From Candidatus Binatia bacterium (GTDB lineage Bacteria > Desulfobacterota > Binatia > Bin18): a stretch of 32,000 nt of DNA. Under the pieces are notes generated by a model, which worked only from the letters and a program-made list of their open reading frames with translations, was not told the DNA's origin and did no database searches. The DNA lies in contig JAJDTY010000023.1 of NCBI GenBank assembly GCA_022826945.1, positions 115,390-147,389 of the forward strand, read 5' to 3'. Of the stretch, positions 5,102 through 25,853 are shown piece by piece (position 1 is the stretch's first letter; each line of letters begins with the position of its first letter). A program made the translations under genes and the position numbers.

Positions 5102-7300
5102 CTACCCTTCAAAGGGCTGTAAGCCGTCTAGATCGGGCTCTCCCTCGACGGGCATCTGGGCATCGGACTGGGCCTTGGTAAATTCGTACAGGCGCTGCTG
5201 AGACCGAACAGGGGCGAGCGGGTCGGGCTCTACCCGCCTGGAGCGCCCGTCGGGTAGGATCGTGCGGGCCTTGACTGTGTCGGCCAGCTGAATGCTGAGT
5301 ATTTCAAAAAGCTGGGCCTGGATATGGGGATCAAGGATGGGAAAGGCGACTTCGACGCGGCGGTCCAGATTGCGTGGCATCCAGTCGGCGGATGCCAGAA
5401 AATACTCGGCATCGCCATCATTATGAAAGTAAAATATGCGGGCGTGTTCGAGGTAGCGGTCGATAATGGAAATCACCCGAATCCGTTCGGATATGCCCGG
5501 CAGTCCGGGCCGCAGGCAGCAAATGCCACGGATGATAAGATCAATCTCCACCCCCGCTTGGCTGGCCGTGTATAGCTCCTCAATCATGGCCGCGTCAACC
5601 AGACTGTTGATCTTGGCAATGATTCTGGCCGGCTTGCCCTCCAGGGCGTGTTCTGCTTCGCGCCGAATCCGCTCAATCATCCCCTCCCGCATACTCGTGG
5701 GAGCGACCAGGAGGTGATGAAACGTCTGCGGACGGGTATAGCCGGTTAACAAGTTGAACAGGTCGGTGAGATCGTCGCCAAAGGACTCGCGGCAGGTAAA
5801 GAGACCGAAGTCGCCGTAGATGCCGCTCGTATTCACATTATAGTTACCGGTCGCGAGGTGGCAGTAGCGACGGATGCCACCATTCTCACGCCGTACCACC
5901 AGACACGCCTTGCAGTGCGTCTTATAGCCGACCAGCCCATACACCACATGGGCGCCAACCTCTTCGAGCGCCCGCGCCCAAGTAATATTGGCCTCCTCAT
6001 CAAAACGGGCCCGGAGTTCGACCAGGACAGCCACTTCTTTACCCGCTTCTGCGGCCCGCGTGAGTGCCTGGGCAATGGGTGAGGTTGGACTGACCCGGTA
6101 GAGGGTCATTTTAATGGCCAGGACATTCGGGTCGGTCGCGGCCTCTTCCACAAAGCGCATCACCACATCGAAAGACTGGTAGGGATGGTGCACCAGGATG
6201 TCGCCCTCCCGAATGGCACTCCACATGTCCGGCTTTTTCTCACAGGCCGGGACCTGCAGGGGTGTCCACGGTTGGTCTTTATGCTGCGGCAGGTCCACGG
6301 CTCCATAGAGCTGGAACAGGTCGGTAAAAGCGGTGAAACCCTCACCGGCGTACAGGTCTTCGGGGTGCAGGTCGAGTTCATCAATAAACATATTGAGGAC
6401 GGCCTGCGGCAGGTCGGAGTCGTATTGTAGCCGTACCGCGGTCCCCATGCGCCGGTCGCGTACACTCTCTTCGATACTCGTCAGCAGATCTTCGGTTCGG
6501 CCGAGCGCCAGGGCCGAGTCCGCGTCCCGCGTCACCCGGACGGCATGACACGACAGGATCTCATAGCCGTGATACGGGCGGGGCAGGTACAGCCGAACCA
6601 CATCTTCGAGCAGGATAAAGATATGCTTGCCAGCTGGAGCCGGGAGCGCAATAAAGCGCTGGACGACTTGGCTGGGGATATGGACGACAGCCAGTTTGGT
6701 CTGGGGCAGACGCGAAGTCCCGGCCGAGCGCAGGGCCGCGACCAGACACAGGGCGCGATTGCCGAGATGGGGAAAGGGATGGCCGGGATCAATCGCCAGC
6801 GGCGTGACAACCGGCAGCAGGGTCCGCCGAAAGAAGTCTTCAAGAAAATGACTTTGCTCGGCATTCAACTCTTCCGGGCGGGTAATATGAATTCCCTCCG
6901 CCTCCAGTTGCGGCTGAATGGTCTCCAGAAACCCTCGGTGTTGTTCCTCGGCCAGCTCATGGACCCGTTTTGAGATAGCGGTCAGTGTCTGGGCCGGTGT
7001 CATGCCATCCGGACCAGCCTCCAGGTCGCCCTGGACAATCCGCCGCTTGAGCCGCGCCACGCGGACCATGAAAAATTCGTCCATATTGGCACTGAATATG
7101 GCCATGAACTTGACGCGTTCGAGCAAGGGGACACTCTCATCGAAAGCTTCCTCAAGGACGCGTCGGTTGAATTCGAGCCAGGACAACTCACGGTTAATAA
7201 AAGGCTTGTCTTCCATGCAGATACCGCCGTCAAGAGGAAACGTGTTCTCCTCTCCAATGATAGAGAGGTACTGAACTCGTTTCCTCTCTCTATCAGACAT
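5102..7300 (-). CDS. ppk: Polyphosphate kinase 1
   Basis: ORF track 732 aa. FINRELSWLEFNRRVLEEA at the N-terminus and the VGYKTHCKACLVVRRE catalytic-His region. The homologous part starts at Met29 (ATG 7216). The first 28 codons are repeat-derived (see findings). ATG 7300 has GGAG 10 nt upstream. Confidence 0.9.
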   Translation of the reverse strand: MSDRERKRVQYLSIIGEENTFPLDGGICMEDKPFINRELSWLEFNRRVLEEAFDESVPLLERVKFMAIFSANMDEFFMVRVARLKRRIVQGDLEAGPDGMTPAQTLTAISKRVHELAEEQHRGFLETIQPQLEAEGIHITRPEELNAEQSHFLEDFFRRTLLPVVTPLAIDPGHPFPHLGNRALCLVAALRSAGTSRLPQTKLAVVHIPSQVVQRFIALPAPAGKHIFILLEDVVRLYLPRPYHGYEILSCHAVRVTRDADSALALGRTEDLLTSIEESVRDRRMGTAVRLQYDSDLPQAVLNMFIDELDLHPEDLYAGEGFTAFTDLFQLYGAVDLPQHKDQPWTPLQVPACEKKPDMWSAIREGDILVHHPYQSFDVVMRFVEEAATDPNVLAIKMTLYRVSPTSPIAQALTRAAEAGKEVAVLVELRARFDEEANITWARALEEVGAHVVYGLVGYKTHCKACLVVRRENGGIRRYCHLATGNYNVNTSGIYGDFGLFTCRESFGDDLTDLFNLLTGYTRPQTFHHLLVAPTSMREGMIERIRREAEHALEGKPARIIAKINSLVDAAMIEELYTASQAGVEIDLIIRGICCLRPGLPGISERIRVISIIDRYLEHARIFYFHNDGDAEYFLASADWMPRNLDRRVEVAFPILDPHIQAQLFEILSIQLADTVKARTILPDGRSRRVEPDPLAPVRSQQRLYEFTKAQSDAQMPVEGEPDLDGLQPFEG
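7232..7290 (+). repeat. Palindromic repeat family X, copy at the 5' end of the ppk ORF
   Basis: AAGAGGAAACGTGTTC-TCCTCTCCAATGATAGAGAGGTACT-GAACTCGTTTCCTCTCTC. 14 of 16 arm positions pair. Confidence 0.8.
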
Positions 7301-7388
7301 CAGGTCTACGCTCCGAAAACGATAGATATAAGCGCAGCGTGCTGCAACCCCAGGGGGATTTTACACCGATACGAGTTCATAGGAGCGA

Positions 7389-7481
7389 GAGGGAGGGGCG
7401 CTGGTAGGGCGTGTGATCCTTGGGGAGGGAGATCGACACTACGCCTGCCAGCGCCAGGGGGAAGGATAACACCTTCTCTCC
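7389..7481. repeat. Tandem intergenic repeat R, copy 1 (ppk-mgtE spacer)
   Basis: GAGGGAGGGGCGCTGGTAGGGCGTGTGATCCTTGGGGAGGGAGATCGACACTACGCCTGCCAGCGCCAGGGGGAAGGATAACACCTTCTCTCC. It aligns with 7559-7650 and is followed by the hairpin TCTCTCC-TATC-GGAGAGA-TTTT (7475-7496). Confidence 0.75.
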
Positions 7482-7491
7482 TATCGGAGAG

Positions 7492-7533
7492 ATTTTACCG
7501 AAGAGTGACAGGTCGGTGACAGTCTGGTTATAC
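7492..7533 (-). promoter_or_regulatory. Pho-box-like triple heptamer plus -10 candidate, oriented toward ppk
   Basis: Minus strand reads GTATAAC-CAGA-CTGTCAC-CGAC-CTGTCAC (7533..7505, 11-bp phasing), then 7 nt, then TAAAAT (7497..7492). Matches the enterobacterial Pho-box form CTGTCAT-N4-CTGTCAY. Confidence 0.6.
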
Positions 7534-7558: not shown

Positions 7559-7650
7559 GAGAGGGGGCGCTGCCAGGGCGTGTGATCCTAGGGAGGCGGA
7601 CCAACATTGCACCTAGCAACGCCAGGGGGAGGGACAACATTTCTTTTCTC
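7559..7650. repeat. Tandem intergenic repeat R, copy 2
   Basis: GAGAGGGGGCGCTGCCAGGGCGTGTGATCCTAGGGAGGCGGACCAACATTGCACCTAGCAACGCCAGGGGGAGGGACAACATTTCTTTTCTC. Roughly three quarters identical to copy 1 by eye. Confidence 0.75.
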
Positions 7651-7666: not shown

Positions 7667-7706
7667 ATGACACCATTGTGACTCGCTGATGAAAAATGTG
7701 TGACAC
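7667..7706 (-). promoter_or_regulatory. Array of four Pho-box-like heptamers with 11-bp phasing
   Basis: Minus strand reads GTGTCAC-ACAT-TTTTCAT-CAGC-GAGTCAC-AATG-GTGTCAT (7706..7667). These are the same heptamer types as in the porin and receiver promoters. No convincing -10 lies downstream. Confidence 0.5.
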
Positions 7707-9243: not shown

Positions 9244-9972
9244 ATGCAAAGAGGAAATGCGTCCGGCATCTCAGGTCTATTGGAAGACCCGTTTTCTCTT
9301 TGTGCCGCATCCCTGCTTATGGCGGCCATCAGTCTTTGCCTCATCGGCTGCTCTGAAACCCTGATCCCAACTCTTCCGCCGGCATCAACCCATACGCCCG
9401 TGGCTCAGCTCGCCCAAGAGGGAAAGCTGGACCCGGACGGTATCTGGTCGGACGACAACCAAGCCATTGAGTTTTCTGTTCCCGCGGAACAACTTGCCGC
9501 CCTGGTGATCCAGGCCGCAAAAACCGAAGGCTGGCACGCACGCGATACGGTGAATAAATATAAACCTCACCCCCTTTCTCCTCCTGAAGGGAGGAAGGGC
9601 GACACGTATTTCGTTCATCTGTTGAACCCGTTCGAAGAGCACTGGTTCGGGTATGCGCAACACGACATCATGATTTACACCACACAGGGGAGGAGCGCGG
9701 TCCAGGTTTCGGATGGAGGGCCGATTGGTGGAGACGATGAAAGTGCTCTCCCACGCACGCTTCTGGACCCGGTTCGGGAGCATGTTCAGGCCTATTTGGC
9801 CGGTCGCCCGCTTACGGTCCGAGAAAAGCGTCAACTCCGCGAGGCCGCGCTCGCTCACCCAGAACGCCTCCCAGAGGAGCGTCTGAACGATATTAAGCGT
9901 CTGCGCGACCAGGGTTATCTCAACGCCGAAGAATACGAACGGAAACGGGCAGAAATTCTGAAATCATTGTAG
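9244..9972 (+). CDS. Hypothetical lipoprotein with a C-terminal SHOCT domain
   Basis: Lipobox SLCLIGC. C-terminus ERLNDIKRLRDQGYLNAEEYERKRAEILKSL is SHOCT-like. AAGGAAG lies 4 nt upstream of ATG 9244. Codons 2-20 are repeat-derived, so the true start is uncertain (next ATG 9319). Confidence 0.6.
   Translation: MQRGNASGISGLLEDPFSLCAASLLMAAISLCLIGCSETLIPTLPPASTHTPVAQLAQEGKLDPDGIWSDDNQAIEFSVPAEQLAALVIQAAKTEGWHARDTVNKYKPHPLSPPEGRKGDTYFVHLLNPFEEHWFGYAQHDIMIYTTQGRSAVQVSDGGPIGGDDESALPRTLLDPVREHVQAYLAGRPLTVREKRQLREAALAHPERLPEERLNDIKRLRDQGYLNAEEYERKRAEILKSL
9248..9302 (-). repeat. Palindromic repeat family X, copy at the 5' end of the lipoprotein ORF
   Basis: AAAGAGGAAATGCGTCC-GGCATCTCAGGTCTATTGGAA-GACCCGTTTTCTCTTTG. 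The centre is nearly identical to that of copy 2576-2629. Confidence 0.8.
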
Positions 9973-10091
9973 GGGCAGGCAGGCACCTATCAATTTCTCT
10001 AATAATAGAAATTCGCATAATTCAGGCTGAGTTATCTTCCCAAGCCGGTTTGTTCGTGCTATGAAATCCCTCATACTGGTTATGAATACAG

Positions 10092-10174
10092 GCATACATA
10101 GCTGAGTTCTCCCCGACTCAGCGTGTATCGAGGCCCGCAGGTTTCCCCTCCTTTTTCCTGCGGGCCTTTTTTGT
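10092..10174 (+). repeat. Hairpin plus intrinsic-terminator module Y, copy A (candidate small RNA or terminator cassette)
   Basis: GCTGAGT-tctcccc-GACTCAGC (10101-10122), then GGCCCGCAGG-tttcccctccttttt-CCTGCGGGCC-TTTTTT (10132-10172; perfect 10-bp stem, T6). About 88 percent identical by eye to 15696-15777. Confidence 0.7.
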
Positions 10175-10277
10175 TTCCTACGGATGACAGGACAACGACG
10201 CCCGGAAGATAGAAATATAACAAAAAGCGATAATCCAGATGAGAGCGCCTGGGGAGTGCATACTCTGGCTCTGTCCC

Positions 10278-10295
10278 GTGTCATAGAAGTTTCAA
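10278..10295 (+). promoter_or_regulatory. Weak Pho-box-like pair upstream of the PlcP-like operon
   Basis: GTGTCAT-AGAA-GTTTCAA. The first heptamer is 6/7 to CTGTCAT and the second is TTTTCAC-like. The nearest -10-like hexamer (TAACAT, 10314-10319) is 18 nt away, which is farther than expected. Confidence 0.3.
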
Positions 10296-10340
10296 CCTCA
10301 AGAGACTCCAGCGTAACATGCGCTCCTTATACTCAGCCCC

Positions 10341-11156
10341 GTGGTACGAGGTATTGCCAGCCGGCCAACCGGCCTGAAGCGGTCCGGCCAGTCCTCGCGG
10401 CTCTTCATCCCGCCGCTCAAGCCGGCCTTCCCCCGCCCGGTCACCACCTTGCCCGTCGAGCGGCGGGTCAGGGCCACCGCCGTCGATACGCTGATCGTCT
10501 CCGATGTGCACCTCGGAACCGAGGTGAGCCGGGCGTCCGCCCTGCTTGCCACGCTCAAGCGCTCGACCTTTAACCGGCTCATCCTGCTCGGCGACATCTT
10601 TGACGAGCTGAACTTCGCTAAACTCCACCCCGGTCACTGGAGCCTCCTCTCTCATGTTCAAAAGTTGGCGGTACCCCGAAGTGGGATTGAGGTGGTCTGG
10701 GTCGAGGGAAACCATGATCGGCTGCTATCCAAAGTGATTCGGACTTTTCTTGGTATTCCGATCTACAAACGGTATGAATGGGTCCATAGAGGAAAAAAGT
10801 TGCTGGCCCTGCATGGTCATCAGTTTGATACCTTCATCACCCGCTATCCGTATATTACCGGCTCCGCGGACCATCTCTACCGAACCATCCAACGTATTGA
10901 GCCGCGTCACTACCGCTTAAGCCGTCTCCTCAAGCAGAACAGCAAAACATGGCTCCGTATCTCCGAGCAGATCGCCTGGGGAGCATTATCGTATGCAAAA
11001 AAACGGGGCGCGACCCAGATTTTCTGCGGGCACACGCATTATCCCATGTCGCAGCAATCTGCCGGAGTGACGTACTATAACGCGGGTTGCTGGACAGAGA
11101 CACCGGCAACGTTCATCACAGTGAGTGATTGTGTGGCATTGCGCGAGTGTATGTAA
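10341..11156 (+). CDS. Calcineurin-type metallophosphoesterase, LpxH/PlcP-like
   Basis: Motifs SDVHLG, LLGDIFD, EGNHD, LHGHQFD, CGHTHYP. The track start is GTG 10341; TTG 10449 (12 codons before TLIVSDVHLG) is an alternative. No clear SD for either. Confidence 0.75.
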   Translation: MVRGIASRPTGLKRSGQSSRLFIPPLKPAFPRPVTTLPVERRVRATAVDTLIVSDVHLGTEVSRASALLATLKRSTFNRLILLGDIFDELNFAKLHPGHWSLLSHVQKLAVPRSGIEVVWVEGNHDRLLSKVIRTFLGIPIYKRYEWVHRGKKLLALHGHQFDTFITRYPYITGSADHLYRTIQRIEPRHYRLSRLLKQNSKTWLRISEQIAWGALSYAKKRGATQIFCGHTHYPMSQQSAGVTYYNAGCWTETPATFITVSDCVALRECM

Positions 11157-11191
11157 ACGAACAGGCCATTCCATGGAAGGACGGCATCGGC

Positions 11192-13510
11192 ATGCTGGAT
11201 GAGATAGGACAGGAATGGCTCGCCTATTTTGGCGGAGACTCGACAGCTCTATGGACGTTTGCTCTGGAAGATATCCGGCTTGGTCTCGGGCTCGCGGCGG
11301 GTGGCTTAATAGCACTGTCGATTGGACGCCGGCTTAGGACTGGACTGGTGACCCTTCGCGCCGCGGCCTTCGTCCCCTTCTTCTCTCGGTTTCTGTCCAA
11401 ATGGGTCAAGTCATACGATTATTCGGACGAGGAATTCTTTCGCGCAGATGGGGCGGAAGAGAAGTGGATACCGCCTCGTAAACATGCCCTTACGCGGTTG
11501 GCGGCCTATTTTCAGGCATATCATACCCAATCGATTGCATGGGGGAATGCTATCCGTGACAGCTTTTCCGACTTACGCTTTACCGACGCCAACCGGGTTC
11601 CTTTCCCTTTCATGCGTGTCGTCCGCGAGAAGTTTAACCTGTGCTCAGTAGTGACTGCCTCGGATGGCCCGAAGTTGTGCGATCTGGACGAACATTGGAC
11701 ACTTGATGTGAGCGGATCCTATGGTGTCAATGTCGCAGGCTTCAACCGCTATAAAGAGTGGCTGCAAAAGGGCTGGGAGCATGTGAAGGACCTGGGGCCA
11801 GTGCTTGGACCGCTACATCCGCTAGTGGCGGATAATGTGGCCATGCTCAAGTCTATTTCAAAGCTTGACGAAATCTCCTTTCACATGAGCGGGACCGAAG
11901 CAGTTATGGCTGCGGTTCGCCTCGCCCGATTTAACACACGGAGAAAGCTGATCGTCTGCTTCTCGGGTGCCTATCACGGCTGGTGGGATGGTGTGCAGCC
12001 GGGGCTAGGCAGTGAGCGCGACCTCAGCGACTGTCTGACTCTCAAAGACATGCACCCGGCTTCGCTCAATGTATTACGAAGGCGAGCACAGGAGATTGCC
12101 GGTGTTCTGGTAAATCCAGTGCAGTCATTTCATCCCAACTCACCCCCACCCAGCGATGCCGTCCTGCTGACCAGTGCCGTTCGTGACGCAGTCGGAAAAA
12201 CACACGACGAGCACACACCCTACGCGGCCTGGCTACATCAATTACGGGAGGTGTGTACCGCCAATAACATTCCTCTGATTTTTGACGAGGTGTACACCGG
12301 CTTTCGCCTCGCTCCAGGTGGAGCCCAAGAATACTTTAGCGTTCAGGCGGACATGGTGGTGTACGGTAAGACCGTTGCCGGAGGGATGCCTATTGGCGTG
12401 GTGTGCGGCACGGCCGCTCTCATGCGGCGCTTTGATCCTGCGCATCCTATGCGCATCGCGTATGTCATCGGGACGTTTTCCGCCCATCCACTGGTGATGG
12501 GGACCATGTACGAGTTTTTATGTTGGGTGACCCAGCCCGCCACCGCCACGCTCTACGCTCAGGCATCCCGACAGTGCAGCCAATGGGCTCGGGAAACAAA
12601 CCAAAAACTTGCGGACACCGGGCTCCCGGTGCGAATTGTACATCTCGTGACAGTCTGGACAGTGCTCTTTCAGGAATCAAGTCGATACAACTGGCTCCTG
12701 CAATACTATCTGCGTGCTGAGGGCCTGACCTTAAGTTGGGTGGGTACCGGGCGTTGTTTAAGCAGCCTTGACTTTACCCGAGCAGACTATAGGGAGCTTC
12801 AAGCCAAGCTGTTCGCTGCGGCGCTGAAGATGAAACGCGATGGATGGTGGTTAAGCGAACACGAACAACCGGGAAGGGAGAAAAGAATGCGGTCTCGTCT
12901 GGTGCGGGAAATGCTCGGCAGTCTGGTACAGGTCCCCCGACCGATAAAAAGTTTTTACGCAGAGGTCATGCGGCGGAAAAAAGATGACCATGTCGCTTCG
13001 CATAGCAATGCGGTTAATCAATTTTTTCATATTCTGAGTTCAAGTGTCTTTCTGTACTGCTATGTGCTGCTGTTTTCGGATTTGACGACGGCAGTCTGCT
13101 GGAGTCTGGCTGCGCTTCTGGTGCGGCAGGTCGGGCATGCGCTCATCGAACCGCCGTGTCACGACAAAGAGACCCTGCTCTTGGGCTTCAACACACGCAA
13201 CAAGTCGCTCATCGTTACCGGCTATGTGCTGATCCCGGTACTGCATATGGGCTCTGCCGGGGACTGGACGCTGACCTTCCTGAGCAGCCAGCTTGCGAGC
13301 ATTGCACACCACTGGTTTGTCCTCACCCTGCTGGTGGTGACCGGACGTGTGGCCTATCTCATCTGGGCGCACGATTTTCGGATTTCCATGATCTGGTTTA
13401 TCAAACTCATCACCGACCCCCTGACTGATATTATGGCCTACTCCCCCCGCTATCTGCGCCCCTGCCGGGTCCTGCTCCCGCCCTACACTCGTCAGCACCA
13501 GAATCAGTGA
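11192..13510 (+). CDS. Fusion protein: class-III (HemL/GSA-aminomutase-like) PLP aminotransferase plus a C-terminal Mpo1/DUF962-like polytopic membrane domain
   Basis: ORF track 11129 (TTG)..13510. I prefer ATG 11192 (GGAAGGA 10 nt upstream). Motifs SGTEAVMAAVRLAR, AYHGWWDG, DEVYTGFR, VYGKTVAGGMPIG (PLP Lys). From ~residue 600 (track numbering) DDHVASHSNAVNQFFH is followed by several hydrophobic helices. Confidence 0.7.
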   Translation: MLDEIGQEWLAYFGGDSTALWTFALEDIRLGLGLAAGGLIALSIGRRLRTGLVTLRAAAFVPFFSRFLSKWVKSYDYSDEEFFRADGAEEKWIPPRKHALTRLAAYFQAYHTQSIAWGNAIRDSFSDLRFTDANRVPFPFMRVVREKFNLCSVVTASDGPKLCDLDEHWTLDVSGSYGVNVAGFNRYKEWLQKGWEHVKDLGPVLGPLHPLVADNVAMLKSISKLDEISFHMSGTEAVMAAVRLARFNTRRKLIVCFSGAYHGWWDGVQPGLGSERDLSDCLTLKDMHPASLNVLRRRAQEIAGVLVNPVQSFHPNSPPPSDAVLLTSAVRDAVGKTHDEHTPYAAWLHQLREVCTANNIPLIFDEVYTGFRLAPGGAQEYFSVQADMVVYGKTVAGGMPIGVVCGTAALMRRFDPAHPMRIAYVIGTFSAHPLVMGTMYEFLCWVTQPATATLYAQASRQCSQWARETNQKLADTGLPVRIVHLVTVWTVLFQESSRYNWLLQYYLRAEGLTLSWVGTGRCLSSLDFTRADYRELQAKLFAAALKMKRDGWWLSEHEQPGREKRMRSRLVREMLGSLVQVPRPIKSFYAEVMRRKKDDHVASHSNAVNQFFHILSSSVFLYCYVLLFSDLTTAVCWSLAALLVRQVGHALIEPPCHDKETLLLGFNTRNKSLIVTGYVLIPVLHMGSAGDWTLTFLSSQLASIAHHWFVLTLLVVTGRVAYLIWAHDFRISMIWFIKLITDPLTDIMAYSPRYLRPCRVLLPPYTRQHQNQ

Positions 13511-14052
13511 ACGCGGTGAGTATCTGGACCTTTTTGGTTGTCGCTTTTGTCCTGAGCCTGGAACGCTTGTGCTATGCCTGGGTCTGGCGACATACCGACA
13601 TCTTTCGAGAACTGTGCACCCACCCAATGGTGACAGTCTTTGGACAGCCTATCGATGTGTTACGGAAGCTTTTTTACGGCTTTAAGGGGGTACAACTCGG
13701 GGTGTTCCTCTGGTGGTGTGTCGTGTACGGACAAGAATCGAACAGCTTGGCGAGTAGCGATACGGCAGCGCTTGGTGGCGGAATGATTCTTATCGTTGTC
13801 GGACAACTGCTCAACTTTATGGTGTTTTACCGCTTGGGCAAGGTTGGTGTATTTTACGGGAACAAGTTGGGCTATCCGATACCCCGCTGTTCCCTGTTCC
13901 CCTTCTCGATACTCCGCCATCCTCAATATATTGGAGCGGTTGCCTCCATCTGGGGCTTTTTTCTGGCCATGCGCTTTCCGCATGACGACTGGTACTTATT
14001 GCCCGTCCTTGAAACCGTCTACTATGCCTGGGGCGCGTATCTCGAGCGGTAA
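13507..14052 (+). CDS. PEMT/ICMT-family membrane methyltransferase (phospholipid N-methyltransferase-like)
   Basis: 181 aa and polytopic. C-terminal FPFSILRHPQYIGAVASIWGFFL matches the PEMT/ICMT SAM-binding region. The GTG start overlaps the upstream stop (GTGA). Confidence 0.65.
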   Translation: MNAVSIWTFLVVAFVLSLERLCYAWVWRHTDIFRELCTHPMVTVFGQPIDVLRKLFYGFKGVQLGVFLWWCVVYGQESNSLASSDTAALGGGMILIVVGQLLNFMVFYRLGKVGVFYGNKLGYPIPRCSLFPFSILRHPQYIGAVASIWGFFLAMRFPHDDWYLLPVLETVYYAWGAYLER

Positions 14053-14053
14053 C

Positions 14054-14605
14054 GTGTTTGTACTCGCTAGAAGATTCCTGCTTTGCACTCAAAGGCCAGC
14101 ACGCCCCGGCCTGTTTGTACTGGGGGTAGTACTCTGCGCGTGCGGGCTCCTGCCACGGCTGAGCCAGGCTGGCATCTTCGGTATCTGGGCACCCAAAGAT
14201 AATCGGGTCCAAGTCCAACTCTTTCCGTGTCGAGATGCAGTGTGTGGAAAGATCGTGCGGTTGCAGGAGGACGGGCAGACACCGGCGTGCCAACGACTCG
14301 ATCGAGAAAATCCAGACCCGGACAAACGGAGGCGCCGAGTACTGGGACTACAGATTGTGAACGGTTTTCGGCAAGCACACCCTCACCTGCCGACTGATCG
14401 GGAAATTCGTTGGGTTGGCGGGTTTATCTATAATCCGGACACCGGTGACACGCTGGGTGATTCGATTTTCAGCTATCAAATGGAACTGGTGACGGCCGAT
14501 ACACTGACGATTGGCTTCCAAGATTGTTGGCTGAGTTGTGCAGGAAACAGGACCTGGCAGCGCGTACACGCACCAGAACCCAGCCCAACCTGTCCCGATC
14601 TATGA
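14054..14605 (+). CDS. Secreted DUF2147-family protein
   Basis: Track ORF 13796..14605 overlaps the previous gene. In-frame GTG 14054 gives a signal-peptide-like N-terminus (FVLARRFLL...VLCACGLLPRLSQA). Also GIWAP...CGKIVRL...DRENPDPDKRRRRVLGLQIV...WVGGFIYNPDTGDT...TWQRV, which is DUF2147-like. Confidence 0.6.
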   Translation: MFVLARRFLLCTQRPARPGLFVLGVVLCACGLLPRLSQAGIFGIWAPKDNRVQVQLFPCRDAVCGKIVRLQEDGQTPACQRLDRENPDPDKRRRRVLGLQIVNGFRQAHPHLPTDREIRWVGGFIYNPDTGDTLGDSIFSYQMELVTADTLTIGFQDCWLSCAGNRTWQRVHAPEPSPTCPDL

Positions 14606-15624
14606 GAATCGCGATTATTACCGATGCCTGGCATCCCCAAGTCAATGGTGTCGTGCGGACGCTGGCATACACGAGTGAGCAACTCGAAGCAGCCGGGCAT
14701 CAGGTTCTTTGTATCACGCCACAGGCGTTTACCACTTATCCCTGCCCGACGTATCCGACCATTCGCCTTGCCCTCTTCCCACAGAAAGGTGTTGGACAGA
14801 AGCTGACTGCGTTTCGCCCGAACGCCATCCACATTGCAACGGAAGGACCGCTCGGGCATGCAGCCCGCAGGCTGTGTCGCCAATGGGGGCTGCCCTTTAC
14901 TACCTCCTTGCATACCCAGTTTCCCGAATACATTCGAGCACGCTCCCCTATCCCAGTACGCTGGTCTTATCGATACCTCCTCCACTATCATAACCGCGCT
15001 GTGCGCACTTTTGTCCCAACACAGTCCATGCAAGAGCGGCTGCAGGCCCGTGGTTTTCAAAACCTGCACATATGGTCTCGTGGGGTTGATACCACCCTCT
15101 TTCGTCCACGGCCGAAATCGTTTCTTTCAAGGGCCCGTCCCATCATGATGTATCTCGGACGGGTTGCAGTCGAAAAGAATATTGAGGCGTTTTTGAACCT
15201 CGATATACCAGGTTCAAAATATGTCGTCGGCGACGGCCCTGACCTGCCGAAACTCCGCGACCATTATCCGGACGTCTTTTTTGCCGGACAGAGGCTGGGA
15301 CAGAACCTTGCTGCCTATCTCGCTGCTGCGGATGTGTTTGTCTTTCCGAGTCTAACTGACACGTTTGGACTTGTCTTGCTTGAGGCACTGGCCTCTGGAG
15401 TGCCAGTGGCGGCCTTTCCTGTAACTGGCCCCTTAGATATTGTGCAGCAAGGAAAAACCGGGATTCTCGATACCGACCTGCGCCAAGCTATTATTGGAGC
15501 GCTCCGGCTGAACCCGGCTGACTGCGTCGTTTTTGCCAGGCAGCACTCATGGCAAAAGTGCACTCAGCGGTTTCTCTCCCTCCTGGAGCCATTTGAAGAA
15601 CCCTGCTGGCCAGTCGCCTCCTAG
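14602..15624 (+). CDS. GT4-family (GT-B) glycosyltransferase, Agt/SqdX-like
   Basis: ATG 14602 overlaps the upstream stop (ATGA). MRIAIITDAWHPQVNGVVRTL, GRVAVEKNI, FVFPSLTDTFGLVLLEALASGVPVAA. Confidence 0.8.
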   Translation: MRIAIITDAWHPQVNGVVRTLAYTSEQLEAAGHQVLCITPQAFTTYPCPTYPTIRLALFPQKGVGQKLTAFRPNAIHIATEGPLGHAARRLCRQWGLPFTTSLHTQFPEYIRARSPIPVRWSYRYLLHYHNRAVRTFVPTQSMQERLQARGFQNLHIWSRGVDTTLFRPRPKSFLSRARPIMMYLGRVAVEKNIEAFLNLDIPGSKYVVGDGPDLPKLRDHYPDVFFAGQRLGQNLAAYLAAADVFVFPSLTDTFGLVLLEALASGVPVAAFPVTGPLDIVQQGKTGILDTDLRQAIIGALRLNPADCVVFARQHSWQKCTQRFLSLLEPFEEPCWPVAS

Positions 15625-15695
15625 AGAGCAAGCGACCCGTGTGTACCGCCACTGGAGACCGAAGCCAGCACCTACTCTTGCAATATTGAGAATAT

Positions 15696-15777
15696 GTATA
15701 CATTGCTGAGCTCTCCCCGGCTTAGCATGTATCGAGGCCCGGAGGTTTCCCTCCTTATTCCTGCAGGCCTTTTTTGT
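15696..15777 (+). repeat. Hairpin plus terminator module Y, copy B
   Basis: GCTGAGC-tctcccc-GGCTTAGC (15705-15726; one compensatory T-A to C-G change and one G-U relative to copy A), then GGCCCGGAGG...CCTGCAGGCC-TTTTTT (15737-15775; two stem mismatches). Confidence 0.65.
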
Positions 15778-15875
15778 ACTTCTATATTTTGCATCCTTTG
15801 TCCCGTCTCATCCGTCTGTATAAACAGATTGCGTATTATTCGGAGAGAGAATACATAACAGCGAAGGAGGAGCGG

Positions 15876-16595: not shown

Positions 16596-16758
16596 CCACC
16601 AGGACTGTGGCCCGCGCGTACTCTCAATACTGAGAATATGCACAGTTCATGCAGATGTCTTTGCTCTGTAATGTCAGTGTCATATTCTTTGGCTTAGGTC
16701 ATATGGCCTGAGTTCTTCCCCTTTGGACTCCGTTTTCTTTCAAGAGTAGAGTACACTA

Positions 16759-18028: not shown

Positions 18029-18445
18029 ATGAAGCGCCTGCGCGTTTTATTCCTCTGCACGCATAACTCGGCTCGAAGCCAAATGGCTGAGGGACTTTTA
18101 CGGGCGCACGGTCCGGCACGTTTCGAGGTTGCCAGTGCAGGGACCCAGGCGACACGCGTACATCCACTGGCGATCCGAGCCATGGCCGAACTTGAGATTG
18201 ACATCTCCGGCCAGCGATCAAAAACCCTGGACCGATTTGTCAACGTCCCTTGGGACTATGTGATTACCGTATGCGATAACGCCCGCGAGCACTGCCCGGT
18301 CTTTCCCGCAGCCGCTCATCGCCTGCATTGGAGCTTCGCCGATCCCTCTCAGGCCCACGACACGGAGCAAGAACAACTCCGTACGTTCTGTCACGTTCGA
18401 GATGCCATAAGACAGCACCTCCAGGCGTGGGTTGCCCGGCTCTAA
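18029..18445 (+). CDS. arsC: Arsenate reductase, LMW-PTPase (thioredoxin-coupled) type
   Basis: VLFLCTHNSARSQMAEG (CX5R P-loop) and the downstream Cys pair in VITVCDNAREHCP. Confidence 0.85.
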   Translation: MKRLRVLFLCTHNSARSQMAEGLLRAHGPARFEVASAGTQATRVHPLAIRAMAELEIDISGQRSKTLDRFVNVPWDYVITVCDNAREHCPVFPAAAHRLHWSFADPSQAHDTEQEQLRTFCHVRDAIRQHLQAWVARL

Positions 18446-18497: not shown

Positions 18498-18542
18498 TTT
18501 TCACAGGCTTTTCATATTCCTGCAATCTCGAATTCCTACTAT
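18498..18542 (+). promoter_or_regulatory. Pho-box promoter of the receiver gene
   Basis: TTTTCAC-AGGC-TTTTCAT-ATTC-CTGCAAT (18498-18526, 11-bp phasing), exactly 10 nt, then TACTAT (18537-18542). AAGGAGGGA (18557-18565) follows, with a TTG start at 18574. Confidence 0.6.
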
Positions 18543-18573: not shown

Positions 18574-18988
18574 TTGAAAAAAGTTCTGGTAGTGGAAGAT
18601 GAGCCCAGCACCGCTCATCTAATTGCCTATAATCTGGAGCAAGTGGGCTACCGCGTCGAAATCGCCGAAGATGGAGAGCAAGCCTGCGCACGGGTCGAAT
18701 CCTTTGGACCCGACTTGGTGACGTTAGACCTCCTGCTGCCGCTGAAAAGCGGCTGGCAGGTCCTGGAATGTATCCGCTGGCATGCGGATGCACGCGTCCG
18801 TCAGGTACCGATTATTGTGGTGAGTGCTCTGGCTTCTCAGCGGCAGCAATAAAGAACTACAACATAGCGGCGTACACCACTGTTTAAGCAAGCCATTTTC
18901 CATTTCCGAACTCTGTCTACTTGTCCACCGGCAGCTCTCTCCTGCCCTGCATAAGTCAGCACACCCAGGCTATCAGGCAAACGGATAG
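18574..18988 (+). pseudogene. Single-domain CheY-like response regulator interrupted by a +1 frame change at ~18850
   Basis: Frame 1 (18574-18852): MKKVLVVEDE...DLVTLDLLLP...PIIVVSALASQRQQ-stop. The +1 frame (18851-18988) continues KELQHSGVHHCLSKPFSISELCLLVHRQL..., i.e. the alpha4-beta5 (KPF)-alpha5 part of a receiver domain. Confidence 0.65.
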
Positions 18989-19080: not shown

Positions 19081-19136
19081 TTTTCACACATTCATAACGG
19101 CCCTGTCACTTTCTTGTAACAGCCCGAACTTATCCT
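19081..19136 (+). promoter_or_regulatory. Double Pho-box promoter of the porin-pst operon
   Basis: TTTTCAC-ACAT-TCATAAC-GGCC-CTGTCAC-TTTC-TTGTAAC (19081-19120), 10 nt, then TATCCT (19131-19136). Same geometry as the E. coli phoA/pstS Pho boxes. Confidence 0.7.
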
Positions 19137-19253
19137 GTTTGCCTCTGGCCCGGACGAGAGGGGGTGATCTGCGGAAACGGCATACATGCGTCAACCGAGG
19201 TACTGGAGAAACGTCAGAGCAAGAATTCAACACTGGAGGAGGAGACATACTAT

Positions 19254-20669
19254 ATGAGACGATTGGGATTAGCGTTCTGCGTCGGCCTTTTTGCGGCCGG
19301 GCTGCTCCTAGCACGACCAGCCCAGGCCAAGAATGTGGCCGCAGAAATCCTGGATATCCTCAAAGCCAATGGGCAGATCAGCGAGGAGCAGCACCGCGAT
19401 CTGATGATTAAGGCCCAAGCCGAGGATGAGAAGGTTGCAGCCGCCTCGGATTTGACTCAAAAGGTCGAAGGCTTAGAGAAAAATGTCGGCAAGAAGAACT
19501 TTCTGGCCGCCTACTGGAAGAGCGGGCTGCGGCTCGACTCGGCCGATGGCAAATTCAAGCTGAAGGTCGGCGGTCGGATCATGAACGACTGGGCCGTCTA
19601 CAGCACGGACAAGAAGGTCCGGCGACAGTTTGGCCGAATCGGCGATGGCACGGAGTTCCGGCGGGCGCGCTTCTTCATGGAAGGCAGCGTCTACGGTAAC
19701 ATCAAGTACAAGTTTCAGTACGACTTCGCCAGCTCCGATCCATTCAAGGACGCCTATATCCAGCTGAAGAAGCTCCCGATGGCCGGGAACTTTACGGTCG
19801 GCCATTTCAAGGAGCCGTTCTCGCTCGAAGAGCTGACCAGCAGTAAATACATCACCTTTATGGAGCGCTCGCTGCCCAACGTGTTCTCCAGCGGCCGGAA
19901 TCTTGGCGTGCGCTTGAACCGGGCCTTTATGGATAAGCGCGCCACTGCGGCGTTCGGCTTCTTCCGGGAAGGCAATCCGGCCGACACCAGCACGACCTTC
20001 GGCAATAGCGGGATCTACAATGCCACGACCCGGTTTACGATTCTGCCCTGGTATCAGGAAAAGGGCAGACAGCTCCTCCACCTCGGACTGTCATACCGGC
20101 ACGCGTTCCACGACAAGGGCAACAAGATTCGATGGCGTCAGCGGCCCGAAGCGCACCTCGGTCCCCGGTTCGTGGAAACCCCGAAGTTCCACATCGAGGA
20201 CGTGGACTACTTCAACCCCGAAGTGGCGCTGGTCTACGGCCCGGCCTCGTTGCAGTTCGAGTGGATGAGCGCCCTAGTCGACCGACCCTCGGGCGACGAC
20301 ATCCAGTACGACGGGTTCTACGTCTTCGGCAGCTTCTTCCTGACCGGTGAGAACAGGCCCTACAAGACCTCCAGCGGCGCGTTTGACCGAGTCAAGCCCA
20401 AGAACAATTTCGACTGGAAGGGTGGCTACGGGGCGCTGGAACTCGCGGCCCGCTACTCGATGCTGGACCTGAACGACGAGGATATGAACGGTGGTGAGTT
20501 GAGTAACTTCACCTTCGGCGTCAATTGGTATCTCAACCCCAATGTGCGCTTCATGCTGAACTACGTACGTGCGATGTTGGATGAAGATGACTGCTATTAC
20601 AAGGGTGACATGGGTGACCACTGTGGCGATGCTGATATCGTCCAGGCGCGCTTCCAGGTCGATTTCTAA
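19254..20669 (+). CDS. Phosphate-selective porin O/P family outer-membrane channel
   Basis: ATG 19254 preceded by GGAGGAGGAG. Signal peptide MRRLGLAFCVGLFAAGLLLARPAQA, beta-barrel alternation, C-terminal ...VQARFQVDF. The track start 19164 lies upstream of the SD. Confidence 0.8.
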   Translation: MRRLGLAFCVGLFAAGLLLARPAQAKNVAAEILDILKANGQISEEQHRDLMIKAQAEDEKVAAASDLTQKVEGLEKNVGKKNFLAAYWKSGLRLDSADGKFKLKVGGRIMNDWAVYSTDKKVRRQFGRIGDGTEFRRARFFMEGSVYGNIKYKFQYDFASSDPFKDAYIQLKKLPMAGNFTVGHFKEPFSLEELTSSKYITFMERSLPNVFSSGRNLGVRLNRAFMDKRATAAFGFFREGNPADTSTTFGNSGIYNATTRFTILPWYQEKGRQLLHLGLSYRHAFHDKGNKIRWRQRPEAHLGPRFVETPKFHIEDVDYFNPEVALVYGPASLQFEWMSALVDRPSGDDIQYDGFYVFGSFFLTGENRPYKTSSGAFDRVKPKNNFDWKGGYGALELAARYSMLDLNDEDMNGGELSNFTFGVNWYLNPNVRFMLNYVRAMLDEDDCYYKGDMGDHCGDADIVQARFQVDF

Positions 20670-20693: not shown

Positions 20694-21662
20694 ATGAAAA
20701 TGCGAAAACTACTGGCCCTGTGTGGAGCCGTGGCGCTGAGCGCCTCGGTGGCAAACGCTCAGACGATTCAGGTCGATGCCGACCTGCCTAGCTATGAAAA
20801 GGTCAGCGGCATCTCGGGCAATCTGAACAGTATCGGTTCGGACACACTCAACAACTTGATGACCCTCTGGGCCGAAGGATTTAAGAAAGTCTACCCCAAC
20901 GTGAACGTCCAGATCGAAGGCAAGGGCTCAAGCACGGCCCCCCCGGCCCTGATTGAAGCCACGGCCCAACTCGGTCCCATGTCCCGTGCTATGAAAAGCA
21001 AAGAAATGGACGAATTTGAGAAGAAGTTCGGGTACAAACCGACCCCGATTCGTACCTCGCTCGACTCACTGGCCGTCTTTGTCAACAAGGACAATCCGGT
21101 CCAGGGCCTCAACCTTCAGCAGGTCGATGCCCTCTTCTCGAAAAACCGCAAATGTGGCGCGTCCGTGGATGCTGCCACCTGGGGCGACCTGGGTCTGACC
21201 GGAAGCTGGGCCTCGGTCCCGATCAGCCTGTACGGCCGGAATTCCGCCTCGGGCACCTACGGGTTCTTCAAGAAGGTCGCGCTGTGCAAGGGAGACTACA
21301 AGGATACGGTGAAAGAGCAGCCGGGCTCAGCCTCCGTGGTCCAGGGCGTGAGCGAAGACCGCAACGGCACGGGCTATAGCGGTATCGGCTACACGACCTC
21401 GGGCGTGCGCCCCATCCCCTTGGTCAAAGAGGGCAGCGACTATGTCGAGCCTACCTATGAGAACGTGGCCAGCGGGAAGTATCCTCTATCTCGTTTCCTA
21501 TACGTCTATGTGAACAAGGAGCCGAACAAGGCGCTCGATCCCCTGACCAAGGAATTTCTCAAGTTTGTCCTGAGCAAAGAAGGACAAGAGATTGTGGTCA
21601 AGGACGGATACTATCCAATGTCTGCCAAGCTGGTGAACGAAGATCGAGCGGCCTTGGAATAA
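20694..21662 (+). CDS. pstS: Phosphate ABC transporter periplasmic binding protein
   Basis: Signal peptide ending [46 protein letters not shown]...[18 protein letters not shown] upstream. Confidence 0.9.
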
Positions 21663-21686
21663 GCGTCCCTCTTACGCACACCTTCG

Positions 21687-21741
21687 AAAGAGGAAATGTG
21701 TTCTCCAATAGCATATATAGTGCTGGACACGTCTCCTCTTT
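21687..21741 (+). repeat. Palindromic repeat family X, intergenic copy (pstS-pstC)
   Basis: AAAGAGGAAATGTGTTC-TCCAATAGCATATATAGTGCT-GGACACGTCTCCTCTTT. 16 of 17 arm positions pair (two G-U). Confidence 0.85.
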
Positions 21742-21760
21742 GTACCAGGATGAAGGAGCC

Positions 21761-21785
21761 GAAGGGCGGAGATCCTCCGCCCTTC
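21761..21785 (+). other. GC-rich stem-loop in the pstS-pstC spacer
   Basis: GAAGGGCGGAG-atc-CTCCGCCCTTC (11-bp perfect stem), extendable by AAGGAG/CTCTTT across a CC bulge. No U-tract follows. Confidence 0.6.
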
Positions 21786-21837
21786 CTCTTTATCTACCGC
21801 TTGCCCTGTTCGCAGAATAGCATAAGGTAGGTCTATC

Positions 21838-24171: not shown

Positions 24172-25840
24172 TTCTTCGGCGCCCGCAGCGTCGCACGTAT
24201 CGAGGGGGGGTATGTTCAAAGGCTTTCTACGCAGCGGTGACCCGTTCATCTGGCTGACAGGGGGAACCCTGGCTTTCAGTCTGCTCATGATCGCTGCCTT
24301 AATCTGGATCGTGGGGGCCAACGCACTTGGGTTCTTTTGGCCCGACCAACTCAGGGCCGTTGACCTTCAGGGCGGGCAAAAGCTCCTGGGGTCGGTCCGT
24401 GCCCAAGAGGTCATTCCGCAGTCGGTCGGCGACGGCCAGGAACAGTACCGGACGCAGTTCCAGGTCGCCAACCGTGACCTGTACGGTTCCGATTTTCGCT
24501 GGGTGGATGACAGCCTGATGACCGGGCATGCGTTTCCGGAGCAGGCGATTTATTTGGAACGGTATGAATGGGGTCCGTTTTTTGGCTTTCTCACCACGGT
24601 GCGACAGGACGGCGAAATCGTAGCCGAGGGCTTTGACCAGGCTTGGCCAAAATTCCTCGAACTCCATGCCAGGACCCAAGCTACGCTCGATAATATCCAC
24701 ATCATCGAAAAGAAAGACATCGGGGATATTAACTACGAGCTCGAACAACTGCGTATTGAGGTCAAGCGGACGCAACGCAAGGAGACTGACCCGACCCGGG
24801 CCGCCGGAAAAATCGCCGTTCTTGAGGAGGATATGGCCTCCTGGCGACAGGCCTATGAGGAAAAGGCCCAGGAACTCACCGCGTTATACCAGGAAAATTC
24901 GCGCTATCACATTACTGTGCAGGACATTAACGGCAAAGAAAAAGAGCTGGCGATTGCCGGCGTGGTGCGCGGCTTTCTGCCCAATAATATGAACCGGCTT
25001 GAACGCTTCGGCCTGTATGTCGCGCGCTTCTGGGAATTCTTTTGGGAAGACCCGCGCGAGGCAAACACTGAGGGCGGCGTGTTCCCCGCCATTTTTGGGA
25101 CGGTCATGATGGTCATCATCATGAGCATTGTGGTGGTCCCTTTTGGCGTGGTCGCCGCCCTGTATCTGCGCGAGTATGCCAAGCAGGGTCCCCTGGTTCG
25201 CGCCGTTCGGATTGCGGTCAACAACCTCGCCGGTGTGCCCTCGATTGTGTTTGGCGTTTTTGGCCTTGGATTTTTTGTGTATGCGATCGGCGGAACGCTG
25301 GACCAGCTCTTCTATCAGGATTCTCTCCCTACCCCGACCTACGGTACCGGCGGGATTCTGTGGGCCTCGTTGACCTTAGCCTTGCTGACCGTCCCGGTGG
25401 TCATTGTGGCTACCGAAGAATCGTTGTCCGCCATCCCAATAGAGTGGCGGGAGGGCTCATTAGCGCTTGGCGCGACCAAGTGGGAGACCCTGCGAAAAAT
25501 CGTTATTCCCGGCGCGCTGCCAGGCATCTTGACAGGGACTATTCTGGCTATGGCCCGCGGTGCCGGGGAAGTCGCTCCGCTGATGATCACCGGTGTTGTC
25601 AAACTGGCCCCGACCTTACCCGTTGACGGCCACTGGCCGTTCTTTCACCTGGAACGGAAATTTATGCATCTGGGGTTTCATATTTACGATGTCGGTTTTC
25701 AGTCGCCGAACGTCGAGGCGGCCAAGCCCATGGTCTTCATGACGACCCTGCTGTTGATTGTGATCGTCATCGCCTTGAACCTGGCTGCGATTGCGATTCG
25801 GAACCGTTTACGCAGCCGCTTACGCTTTGGCGCCTTTTAA
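24158..25840 (+). CDS. pstA: Phosphate ABC transporter permease PstA, long form
   Basis: 560 aa. One TM helix, a ~270-aa soluble insert with a coiled-coil-like stretch, and a permease core with [20 protein letters not shown]. Overlaps pstC by 14 nt (alternative ATG 24212). Confidence 0.85.
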
Positions 25841-25853
25841 AGGGAGAGTGAGT

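Follow-up and report, generated by a model that had tools for sequence, protein, structure and literature searches.

A candidate pathway for a phosphorus-free, nitrogen-bearing membrane lipid encoded among phosphate-regulon genes in a Candidatus Binatia bacterium

In oceans and soils where phosphate is scarce, a major response of microbes is to exchange their phospholipids for lipids without phosphorus. To our knowledge, the phosphorus-free head groups known from bacteria are few, namely those of glycolipids, of diacylglyceryl-trimethylhomoserine (DGTS) and of ornithine or glutamine lipids. The described system closest to the locus reported here is the PlcP-Agt module, which is known from Sinorhizobium meliloti, Agrobacterium tumefaciens, SAR11 strain HTCC7211, Pseudomonas aeruginosa and Methylosinus trichosporium, with the arrangement plcP-agt-dagK in Burkholderia cenocepacia. 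A five-gene cassette related to this module was identified in a stretch of 32,000 nucleotides (hereafter the window) from the genome of a Candidatus Binatia bacterium (assembly GCA_022826945.1, contig JAJDTY010000023.1, forward-strand positions 115,390 to 147,389). Like the PlcP-Agt module, the cassette combines an LpxH-like metallophosphoesterase and an Agt-clade glycosyltransferase of family 4 (GT4) having identical motifs with a Pho-box-like site and phosphate-regulon neighbours. It differs in that three genes, coding for an aminotransferase/Mpo1-like fusion protein, a PEMT-family methyltransferase and a DUF2147 protein, stand between the plcP-like gene and agt. In the PlcP literature on PlcP/Agt remodelling that was examined, no aminotransferase or methyltransferase is reported in the cluster. 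The system is of a kind already known, phosphate-starvation remodelling by way of PlcP and a diacylglycerol-consuming enzyme, and its partner set appears to be new. We regard it as somewhat probable, from the genes and their context, that the cassette carries out PhoB-controlled lipid remodelling which would yield a phosphorus-free, nitrogen-bearing membrane lipid.

A second system for comparison is BtaA/BtaB, which makes DGTS, likewise a phosphorus-free diacylglycerol lipid with an amino head group methylated by S-adenosylmethionine (SAM). A relative of the window phosphoesterase with 54% identity is encoded directly upstream of a DUF3419 protein, which we take to be of the BtaA family, and a class-I methyltransferase. 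This is the plcP-btaA-btaB arrangement known from marine bacteria, the bta genes often lying downstream of plcP (PMC4796936). However, the window has no DUF3419/BtaA homologue and its methyltransferase is of the membrane-bound PEMT type; moreover, its nitrogen would come from transamination of an oxidised carbon by an enzyme dependent on pyridoxal phosphate (PLP), whereas that of DGTS comes from the aminocarboxypropyl group of SAM.

Two further comparisons concern the chemistry. The series from phosphatidylserine (PS) through phosphatidylethanolamine (PE) to phosphatidylcholine (PC) resembles the present module in that partners of the latter are homologous to Psd and PEMT/PmtA (a PEMT where the aminotransferase is fused, Psd and a PmtA-like enzyme where it is split, as described below). 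It differs in that the window cassette has no phosphatidylserine synthase, sits in a phosphate-sparing context and would make its amine in place. With ArnA/ArnB, oxidation of a uronic-acid sugar gives a keto sugar, which is transaminated to 4-amino-4-deoxy-L-arabinose, a cationic amino sugar of the cell envelope. The Arn enzymes act on UDP-sugar substrates and comprise an NAD-dependent dehydrogenase/decarboxylase and a DegT-type aminotransferase. The logic of oxidising and then transaminating would be the same in the window, but with a membrane-bound Mpo1-like oxidase and a class-III aminotransferase.

The five open reading frames (ORFs) listed in the first-pass annotation were each confirmed at their coordinates. 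They are co-directional on the forward strand and tightly packed from 10341 to 15624, in the order phosphoesterase (10341-11156), fusion protein (11192-13510), PEMT (13507-14052), DUF2147 protein (14054-14605) and GT4 (14602-15624). The junctions that had been described are all present in the sequence: the stop of the fusion gene and the start of the PEMT gene overlap as GTGA (13507-13510), a single nucleotide separates the PEMT gene from the DUF2147 gene, and the stop of the latter overlaps the GT4 start as ATGA (14602-14605). A gap of 35 nt lies between the phosphoesterase stop (11156) and the fusion start (11192). A start of the fusion at TTG 11129, giving the longest ORF, was abandoned, since an alignment with eleven homologues places the start at ATG 11192 for a protein of 772 aa.

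The phosphoesterase (271 aa) has a GTG start and its first ~45 residues are poorly conserved. The full calcineurin-type motif set that had been read from this gene is indeed there, with DVH at residue 55, GDIFD at 84, GNHD at 123, HGH at 158 and GHTH at 230, and the Pfam models Metallophos and Metallophos_2 both score above their cut-offs. The source databases automatically name its relatives 'UDP-2,3-diacylglucosamine pyrophosphatase LpxH' and its solved relatives are LpxH chains only, which would suit a genuine LpxH in an operon for housekeeping lipid A or cell-wall synthesis. This explanation is already contradicted and deserves next to no credence. With the LpxH equivalog models the protein reaches 31.1 bits (NF003743, cut-off 134) and 17.7 bits (TIGR01854, cut-off 190), and it aligns with the solved LpxH chains at 22-24 bits only, over residues 50-238. 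No LpxH match was found in the genome searched, LpxI is encoded on another contig of the same genome (161 bits), and the phosphoesterase gene is present in two of 28 genomes of the genus, being absent from the other 26. Judged from these scores and this distribution, the phosphoesterase resembles LpxH in fold and motifs without being LpxH.

Its subfamily comprises 2053 homologues at E <= 1e-10, several of which (54-61% identity) share contigs with homologues of the fusion protein. At one homologous locus a relative adjoins both a GT4-fusion-PEMT cluster and PhoX, and another relative precedes a GT2/GT21 gene; with the relative P0216, lipid genes were not found nearby. A BLAST E-value below 1e-40 to the PlcP of MED193 has been used in the literature as the criterion for PlcP (PMC4796936). 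Against the phosphoesterases encoded directly ahead of agt in Sphingosinicella and Nitrospira loci, the window protein reaches only 27-29% identity (E-values 1e-20 to 1e-22). As regards context, it shares one operon with an Agt-clade GT4 behind a Pho-box-like site, and its relatives are found upstream of DUF3419 and methyltransferase genes and of GT2/GT21. It is thus a candidate PlcP-type phospholipase C, an assignment that rests on fold, synteny and the exclusion of LpxH.

The product of 14602-15624 (340 aa) had been called a GT4 glycosyltransferase, which is borne out by the domain pair Glyco_transf_4 (81 bits) and Glycos_transf_1 (61 bits). The best-characterised enzyme for comparison is GTcp of SAR11 (334 aa), whose clade is marked by the motifs GRVAxEKN and FPSxTDTFG, with Asp in place of the usual GT4 Glu, and which has a His104-Asp256 catalytic dyad (PMC8231724). 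Mutation of nine GTcp residues abolishes activity, these being G16, G82, G85, R190, K195, T257, F258, G259 and E264 (PMC8231724). The window protein has GRVAVEKN at residue 186 and FPSLTDTFG at 248. Its G16, G82, G85 and H104 carry the same numbering as in GTcp, while R187, K192, D253, T254, F255, G256 and E261 correspond to GTcp positions at a constant offset of -3, so that all activity-abolishing residues and the His-Asp dyad are conserved. By these motifs and residues, the protein belongs to the Agt/GTcp clade of predicted diacylglycerol glycosyltransferases, rather than to a cell-wall or exopolysaccharide family.

The fusion protein is membrane-anchored. An N-terminal anchor and conserved linker (11192-11566) precede the part alignable with MycA-AMT, the aminotransferase domain of the mycosubtilin synthase MycA, and this region is also present in unfused homologues, whose similarity to the fusion sets in at about residue 52-85. 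Then comes a class-III PLP-dependent aminotransferase domain (11567-12793), which scores 99 bits with Aminotran_3 (cut-off 30.5). MycA-AMT is its closest solved relative (PDB 6kfm, E-value 1e-47, residues 126-534), with some 400 residues aligned. The catalytic lysine in YGKTVAGGMP is invariant in the alignment with the eleven homologues and aligns with the YGK of MycA, and the domain is, as far as its sequence tells, a competent-looking class-III PLP enzyme with an intact active site. However, MycA-AMT is a domain of a polyketide synthase/non-ribosomal peptide synthetase megasynthase, whereas the window protein is anchored in the membrane, lacks carrier and synthase domains and has an Mpo1-like domain as its fusion partner.

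The first-pass annotation had called this protein a HemL-like PLP aminotransferase, of which the second part was right and the first was not. The best match to a glutamate-1-semialdehyde aminomutase has an E-value of 8e-32, against 1e-47 for MycA-AMT, and the hemL model TIGR00713 gives 164 bits with a cut-off of 527. HemL is a soluble protein of ~430 aa, and a class-III paralogue of that size is encoded elsewhere on the contig. HemL identity was ruled out by the TIGR00713 score, by the length and membrane anchor of the protein and by its closer relation to MycA. In the source databases, relatives of the fusion nevertheless go by the names HemL or 'aminotransferase class III'. Some aminotransferase relatives carry long N-terminal extensions, as in P0253 (1189 aa) and P0252 (872 aa). 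The extension of P0253 has a weak Glycos_transf_2 match (22.4 bits, just below the cut-off), pointing to a possible glycosyltransferase-aminotransferase fusion; for the first 340 aa of P0252, no Pfam match was obtained.

The last ~200 residues of the fusion (12881-13510) form an all-helical membrane domain in an AlphaFold2 model of this part, with a predicted local distance difference test (pLDDT) score of 87. A full-length model built from the twelve-sequence alignment had a mean pLDDT of 41 and was rejected as unusable. Invariant in the alignment of the domain family are DDH..H....NQ..H, RQ.GH...EP and K..TDP..D. The domain had been described as Mpo1/DUF962-like. The window protein itself falls below the threshold of the Pfam Mpo1-like model (PF06127), yet the likeness was upheld by its relatives and by profile comparison. 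This model, and no other, is matched by 24 of 31 members of the domain family at E <= 0.01, and P0269, a full-length homologue 34% identical to the fusion, clears the cut-off of 24 with 38.6 bits. When the family alignment was compared with one of ten genuine PF06127 proteins from related genomes, hhalign gave a probability of 90.3% and an E-value of 1.5e-6 over 59 columns spanning both motif blocks. On these profile matches the C-terminal domain is accepted as a distant relative of Mpo1/DUF962 and not as a family member in the strict sense.

Yeast Mpo1 is an Fe(II)-dependent 2-hydroxy fatty acid dioxygenase, and the window domain shares with Mpo1/DUF962 the patterns H-x5-N-x3-H and GH-x3-E on the first two membrane helices. 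The likeness covers only those ~59 columns; the window domain has ~200 aa, with DDH and K..TDP..D as extra invariants, and domains of its type are always paired with an aminotransferase. Only two relatives of the domain model were found among the AlphaFold database (AFDB) clusters. One of them, B5YMK2 (787 aa), has the same architecture as the fusion, its residues 565-754 matching the C-terminal domain with a template modelling (TM) score of 0.61 and 21% identity. It is possibly a diatom entry, a suspicion that is not used as evidence; were it eukaryotic, the module would extend beyond bacteria.

The product of 13507-14052 was confirmed as a PEMT-type membrane methyltransferase, with hydrophobic segments and 47 bits for Pfam PEMT (PF04191, cut-off 25), and would use SAM as do others of its family. 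The methyltransferases of the module are annotated 'phospholipid methyltransferase' in databases. For 14054-14605 the family assignment as DUF2147 stands (58 bits, cut-off 27) and a hydrophobic N-terminal segment agrees with a secreted protein, but its place in a conserved module does not, as the gene is found at none of 80 related loci. It has four close homologues only, which makes it a lineage-specific addition, and is present in the two further lineages described below that carry the whole cassette; it is, by this distribution and its N-terminal segment, a lineage-specific periplasmic passenger. Sequence searches of the PDB with the PEMT and DUF2147 proteins returned nothing at E <= 1.

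A scan of one genome per species of the GTDB found relatives of the fusion in at least 596 loci, each from a different species. Gene neighbourhoods were counted for the best 80 of these, within 8 kb and with targeted phmmer queries, and fall into two types. The fused type (27 loci, 60-73% identity) occurs in Binatia, Rokubacteria/Methylomirabilota, Nitrospira (including N. moscoviensis), Vicinamibacterales and metagenome-assembled genomes of Delta- and Gammaproteobacteria. Here a GT4 gene is a neighbour at 21 of the 27 loci, a PEMT gene follows the fusion gene at 16 and a phosphoesterase gene is present at 13, while a homologue of PS decarboxylase was found at none. The split type (53 loci, 45-50% identity) occurs in Alpha-, Beta- and Gammaproteobacteria and Acidobacteriaceae, cultured carriers being Methylobacterium aquaticum, Bradyrhizobium ivorense, Roseomonas, Pseudoroseomonas and Sphingosinicella. 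A separate Mpo1-like gene stands near the aminotransferase gene at 48 of these loci and a PS-decarboxylase homologue at 44; the latter scores 184-192 bits with Pfam and lies above the TIGR00163 cut-off. There is a GT4 gene at 38 (28 of them Agt-type with both motifs) and a class-I methyltransferase gene at 21, the best NCBIfam match of the methyltransferase being PmtA at 136 bits, below the cut-off. PEMT was found at none of the 53. In M. aquaticum, the order is Psd, aminotransferase and, convergent with the latter, the Mpo1-like, methyltransferase and GT4 genes; the split-type loci are L045-L093, with L075:6967-12488 as an example.

Overall, only the Mpo1-like and Psd genes are more frequent as partners than GT4, which was found at 59 of the 80 loci and, when at least 4 kb of sequence on either side is required, at 44 of 53, often a few bases from the fusion gene or in its operon. 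The survey of the fusion, which had been proposed as a check, thus shows the fusion and a methyltransferase to be conserved partners of GT4 across phyla. As the aminotransferase and the Mpo1-like protein are encoded either as one protein or by adjacent genes, they are probably linked in function. Methylation appears to be supplied by two unrelated enzyme families, PEMT and a PmtA-like class-I type, and the accessory enzymes all appear homologous to enzymes that act on phospholipid amino head groups, namely PS decarboxylase and the PE N-methyltransferases. Even the very distant fused homologues P0269 and P0355 (29-34% identity) are again beside GT4 and Psd genes. The locus of P0269 (L112:529-12368) additionally encodes a fatty-acyl-AMP ligase/carrier/acyltransferase protein, a HAD protein, GpsA and two FAD_binding_4 oxidases, and seems to be a different lipid cluster around the same aminotransferase/Mpo1-like pair. 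No description of the aminotransferase/Mpo1-like fusion or of its cluster was found in the searchable open-access literature.

The phosphate-related surroundings are as first annotated, with ppk (5102-7300, reverse strand) on one side of the cassette and an OprO/P porin gene (19164-20669), pstSCAB (20694-26711), phoU, phoB and phoR on the other. A Pho-box-like pair of 7-mers at 11-nt spacing (GTGTCAT AGAA GTTTCAA, 10278-10295) lies 46 nt upstream of the GTG start of the phosphoesterase gene. A degenerate pattern for such pairs matched six times in the window against 0.10 expected, always in a promoter and in the correct orientation (ppk twice, the cassette, ACR3, an orphan receiver gene and the porin gene), although this count is partly circular, as the pattern was designed after the porin promoter and the candidate site had been viewed. 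With a stricter pattern, fitted only to the other sites with the candidate left out and allowing at most one mismatch, there were 11 matches against 1.93 expected, ten of them in promoters and the candidate among these. The half-sites TGTCAT and TTTCA, together with GTAACAT and a GAGACT box, do not vary among the promoters of the window, its congener G016 and the more distant lineage L111, while the surrounding sequence has diverged; GTAACAT includes TAACAT (10314-10319), a possible -10 hexamer. The site had been described as weak; by the pattern counts and its conservation in three lineages it is a better candidate for PhoB binding than that.

Homologous clusters in other genomes adjoin PhoX and an OprO/P porin; GDPD, Ppx and a phosphonate transporter; PhoB and PstS (three Nitrospira loci); PhoU or ppk; or ppk, ppx and PhoD. 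The association with Pho genes recurs independently in Nitrospira, Binatia and other lineages. Pho-box-like 7-mers form phased arrays in the window at 7505-7533, 7667-7706 (reverse strand), 16666-16683, 18498-18526 and 19103-19120, and precede ppk, the arsenite efflux gene ACR3, an ORF for an orphan receiver of 93 aa (18574-18853) and the OprO/P porin gene, which suggests that the PhoB regulon may also include arsenic resistance.

Only the window genome and G016, among the 28 genomes of the genus, encode the fusion, the phosphoesterase and the Agt-type GT4. In five complete cassette-free genomes, the left flank (~10172-10179) meets the right flank (~15787) within 13-130 nt, and the block 10188-15786 (5.6 kb) is a clean insertion/deletion and accessory. 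It is bracketed by a direct repeat of ~90 nt consisting of two terminator-like hairpins (10083-10171 and 15687-15775, forward strand, spacing 5604 nt), which folds at -41 kcal/mol (z = -7.1). Two full copies of this element and one partial copy (G000:C67:79546-79586) were found in the genome, and an Rfam scan of the whole window assigned no family to it or to any other part.

This sparse distribution and the direct repeats at the flanks could mark the cassette as a decaying remnant of horizontal transfer without present function, an explanation that is hardly credible in view of its conservation. G016 is syntenic at ~87-91% nucleotide identity, and in L111 the five genes recur in unchanged order, with mgtE on one side and ACR3 on the other and a phosphoesterase 76% identical to that of the window. 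All five frames are intact in the three lineages and the promoter elements are conserved. Between the window genome and G016, the ratio of non-synonymous to synonymous substitution rates (dN/dS) is 0.13-0.17 in all five genes, near the 0.06-0.13 of the flanking housekeeping genes, whose synonymous divergence (dS) is similar; the cassette is under purifying selection. Recent horizontal acquisition was also considered. As L111 carries the cassette at the same site and dS is like that of the flanks, ancestral presence with repeated loss is now at least as likely. The cassette is read as an old, functional accessory block that has often been lost, perhaps through recombination between the flanking repeats.

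The same indel character bears on a further explanation, by which the cassette modifies another envelope glycoconjugate (lipid A, lipopolysaccharide core, capsule or hopanoid) or makes a secreted metabolite, its proximity to pho genes being incidental. As a block that comes and goes within the genus, it need not owe its present neighbours to its function; in addition, the phosphoesterase has an LpxH-like fold and motif set, the GT4 family is very broad and the DUF2147 protein is secreted. We consider this quite unlikely, as the GT4 has the Agt/GTcp motifs including the Asp-for-Glu exchange in FPSxTDTFG, the Pho association recurs independently and is accompanied by a Pho-box-like site inside the cassette's own promoter, and the partner enzymes are homologous to enzymes of phospholipid head groups.

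The first-pass annotation had read the locus as a PlcP/Agt module expanded by further enzymes, which is supported: the two refuting outcomes it had named that are open to computation did not come about, profile scores placing the phosphoesterase outside LpxH and motifs placing the GT4 in the Agt/GTcp clade. The following sequence of steps is proposed for such lipid remodelling. The phosphoesterase, acting as a PlcP-type phospholipase C, would free diacylglycerol from phospholipids, as suggested by its family, its synteny and the exclusion of LpxH. The Agt-clade GT4 would then add glucose or glucuronic acid to the diacylglycerol, in keeping with its conserved GTcp catalytic and binding residues. 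In a third and speculative step, the Mpo1-like domain may use Fe(II) and O2 to convert a hydroxyl carbon of the head group to a carbonyl, possibly at an alpha-hydroxy-acid position; this draws on its distant homology to a 2-hydroxy-acid dioxygenase and its invariant His/Asp/Glu cluster. The genome encodes heme-copper oxidases, which makes an aerobic lifestyle plausible and O2 chemistry feasible. The fused PLP aminotransferase would aminate this carbonyl on the cytoplasmic side of the membrane, as its intact active site and the fused or side-by-side genes suggest, and the PEMT-family enzyme would N-methylate the resulting amine, in line with its family and its replacement by a PmtA-like enzyme in other lineages. 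The Psd homologue of the split type suggests that the aminated intermediate is alpha-amino-acid-like. As the window version has no decarboxylase, the carboxylate would be kept, giving a betaine-like zwitterionic or cationic head group. A precedent for an oxidised lipid-linked sugar is the keto-glucuronosyl-diacylglycerol tentatively assigned in B. cenocepacia (PMC13691135).

More broadly, it is quite possible, though we would stop short of calling it probable, that the aminotransferase/Mpo1-like pair and its partners represent an undescribed and very widespread route by which a diacylglycerol head group, either a sugar or a hydroxy acid, is oxidised, transaminated and tailored in place, giving phosphorus-free mimics of PS, PE and PC. 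On that proposal the window version, with PEMT and no decarboxylase, would lead to a new betaine-type lipid, and the split version, with Psd and a PmtA-like enzyme, to an ethanolamine- or choline-type lipid. There is only a slim chance that this chemistry relates to carboxylated choline lipids such as diacylglyceryl-carboxyhydroxymethylcholine (DGCC), the biosynthesis of which was reported to be unknown as of 2023 (PMC10685587).

Several observations weigh against the remodelling pathway as set out here. The C-terminal domain of the window protein scores 18 bits against the Mpo1-like cut-off of 24, and its model found no significant or named Foldseek match in the Swiss-Prot models or the ESM Atlas. 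The pyranosidic form of glucuronic acid offers the oxidation step no free alpha-hydroxy-acid position. The Pho-box-like site lies 18 nt from the putative -10 hexamer, unlike the arrangement in E. coli, and to this is added the partial circularity of the degenerate-pattern count. Among the 80 loci, a methyltransferase is missing from many and GT4 was not found within 8 kb at 21, in both cases partly owing to contig ends. Lastly, MycA-AMT, to which the aminotransferase is closest among solved structures, acts on a beta-ketoacyl-carrier-protein and not on a sugar.

The last two points lead to the main rival, that of two parallel pathways in one regulon, with PlcP and Agt producing ordinary glucosyl- and glucuronosyl-diacylglycerol. 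The fusion and the methyltransferase would build a phosphorus-free aminolipid of their own from a precursor that is not a glycolipid, for example a beta-keto or 2-hydroxy acyl compound, and would receive no substrate from the GT4. The amination of a beta-ketoacyl thioester by MycA-AMT would suit such a precursor, as would the 2-hydroxy fatty acids given as Mpo1 substrates in the Pfam description, the acyl-activating protein, GpsA and FAD-binding oxidases beside P0269, and the loci without a nearby GT4. Nonetheless this is unlikely in our view, given that GT4 accompanies the pair at most of the loci surveyed, frequently in immediate proximity or within one operon, and that it is kept as a neighbour even by P0269 and P0355. 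A single pathway acting on a glycosylated diacylglycerol remains our preferred reading.

A number of other features of the window and its surroundings were recorded. Between ppk and the cassette lie mgtE and a gene for a SHOCT-domain protein (9244-9972), and genes for a glutathione S-transferase (GST), ACR3 and ArsC are also among its neighbours. The SHOCT gene is not shared by all genomes of the genus, and a stretch of ~55-60 nt at its 5' end (9247-9309) recurs many times in every genome of the genus searched. G016 has ~400 nt extra between the flanking repeat and the cassette promoter (L097), where a small membrane protein may be encoded on the opposite strand, and has no counterpart to the ArsC gene that the window holds at 18029-18445. 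The PstC protein (21838-24171) has 777 aa, with weak Pfam matches to WD40/beta-propeller models at residues 256-446, ahead of the permease domain. Upstream of mgtE, the ppk-mgtE intergenic region holds two similar G-rich elements of ~90 nt in tandem (7378-7472 and 7562-7650), the first of which folds better than shuffled sequences (z = -3.8) and the second not (z = -0.9); neither belongs to an Rfam family. Sequencing runs containing the DNA of the window are mainly sponge and marine metagenomes, and no RNA run is among those listed.

The module is present in at least 596 species representatives, among them members of lineages that are abundant in soil and sediment (Binatia, Rokubacteria/Methylomirabilota, Nitrospira, Vicinamibacterales and Acidobacteriaceae). 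Its proteins now carry the names HemL, LpxH and 'phospholipid methyltransferase', a widespread misannotation that would be corrected if the proposed function holds. A bacterial Mpo1/DUF962-like domain would then have its first assigned function, and an enzymatic way to make cationic or zwitterionic glycolipids would become available. The lipid itself, if confirmed as the product, would constitute a new class made by a new biosynthetic logic for amino head groups and would provide a biomarker for environmental lipidomics.

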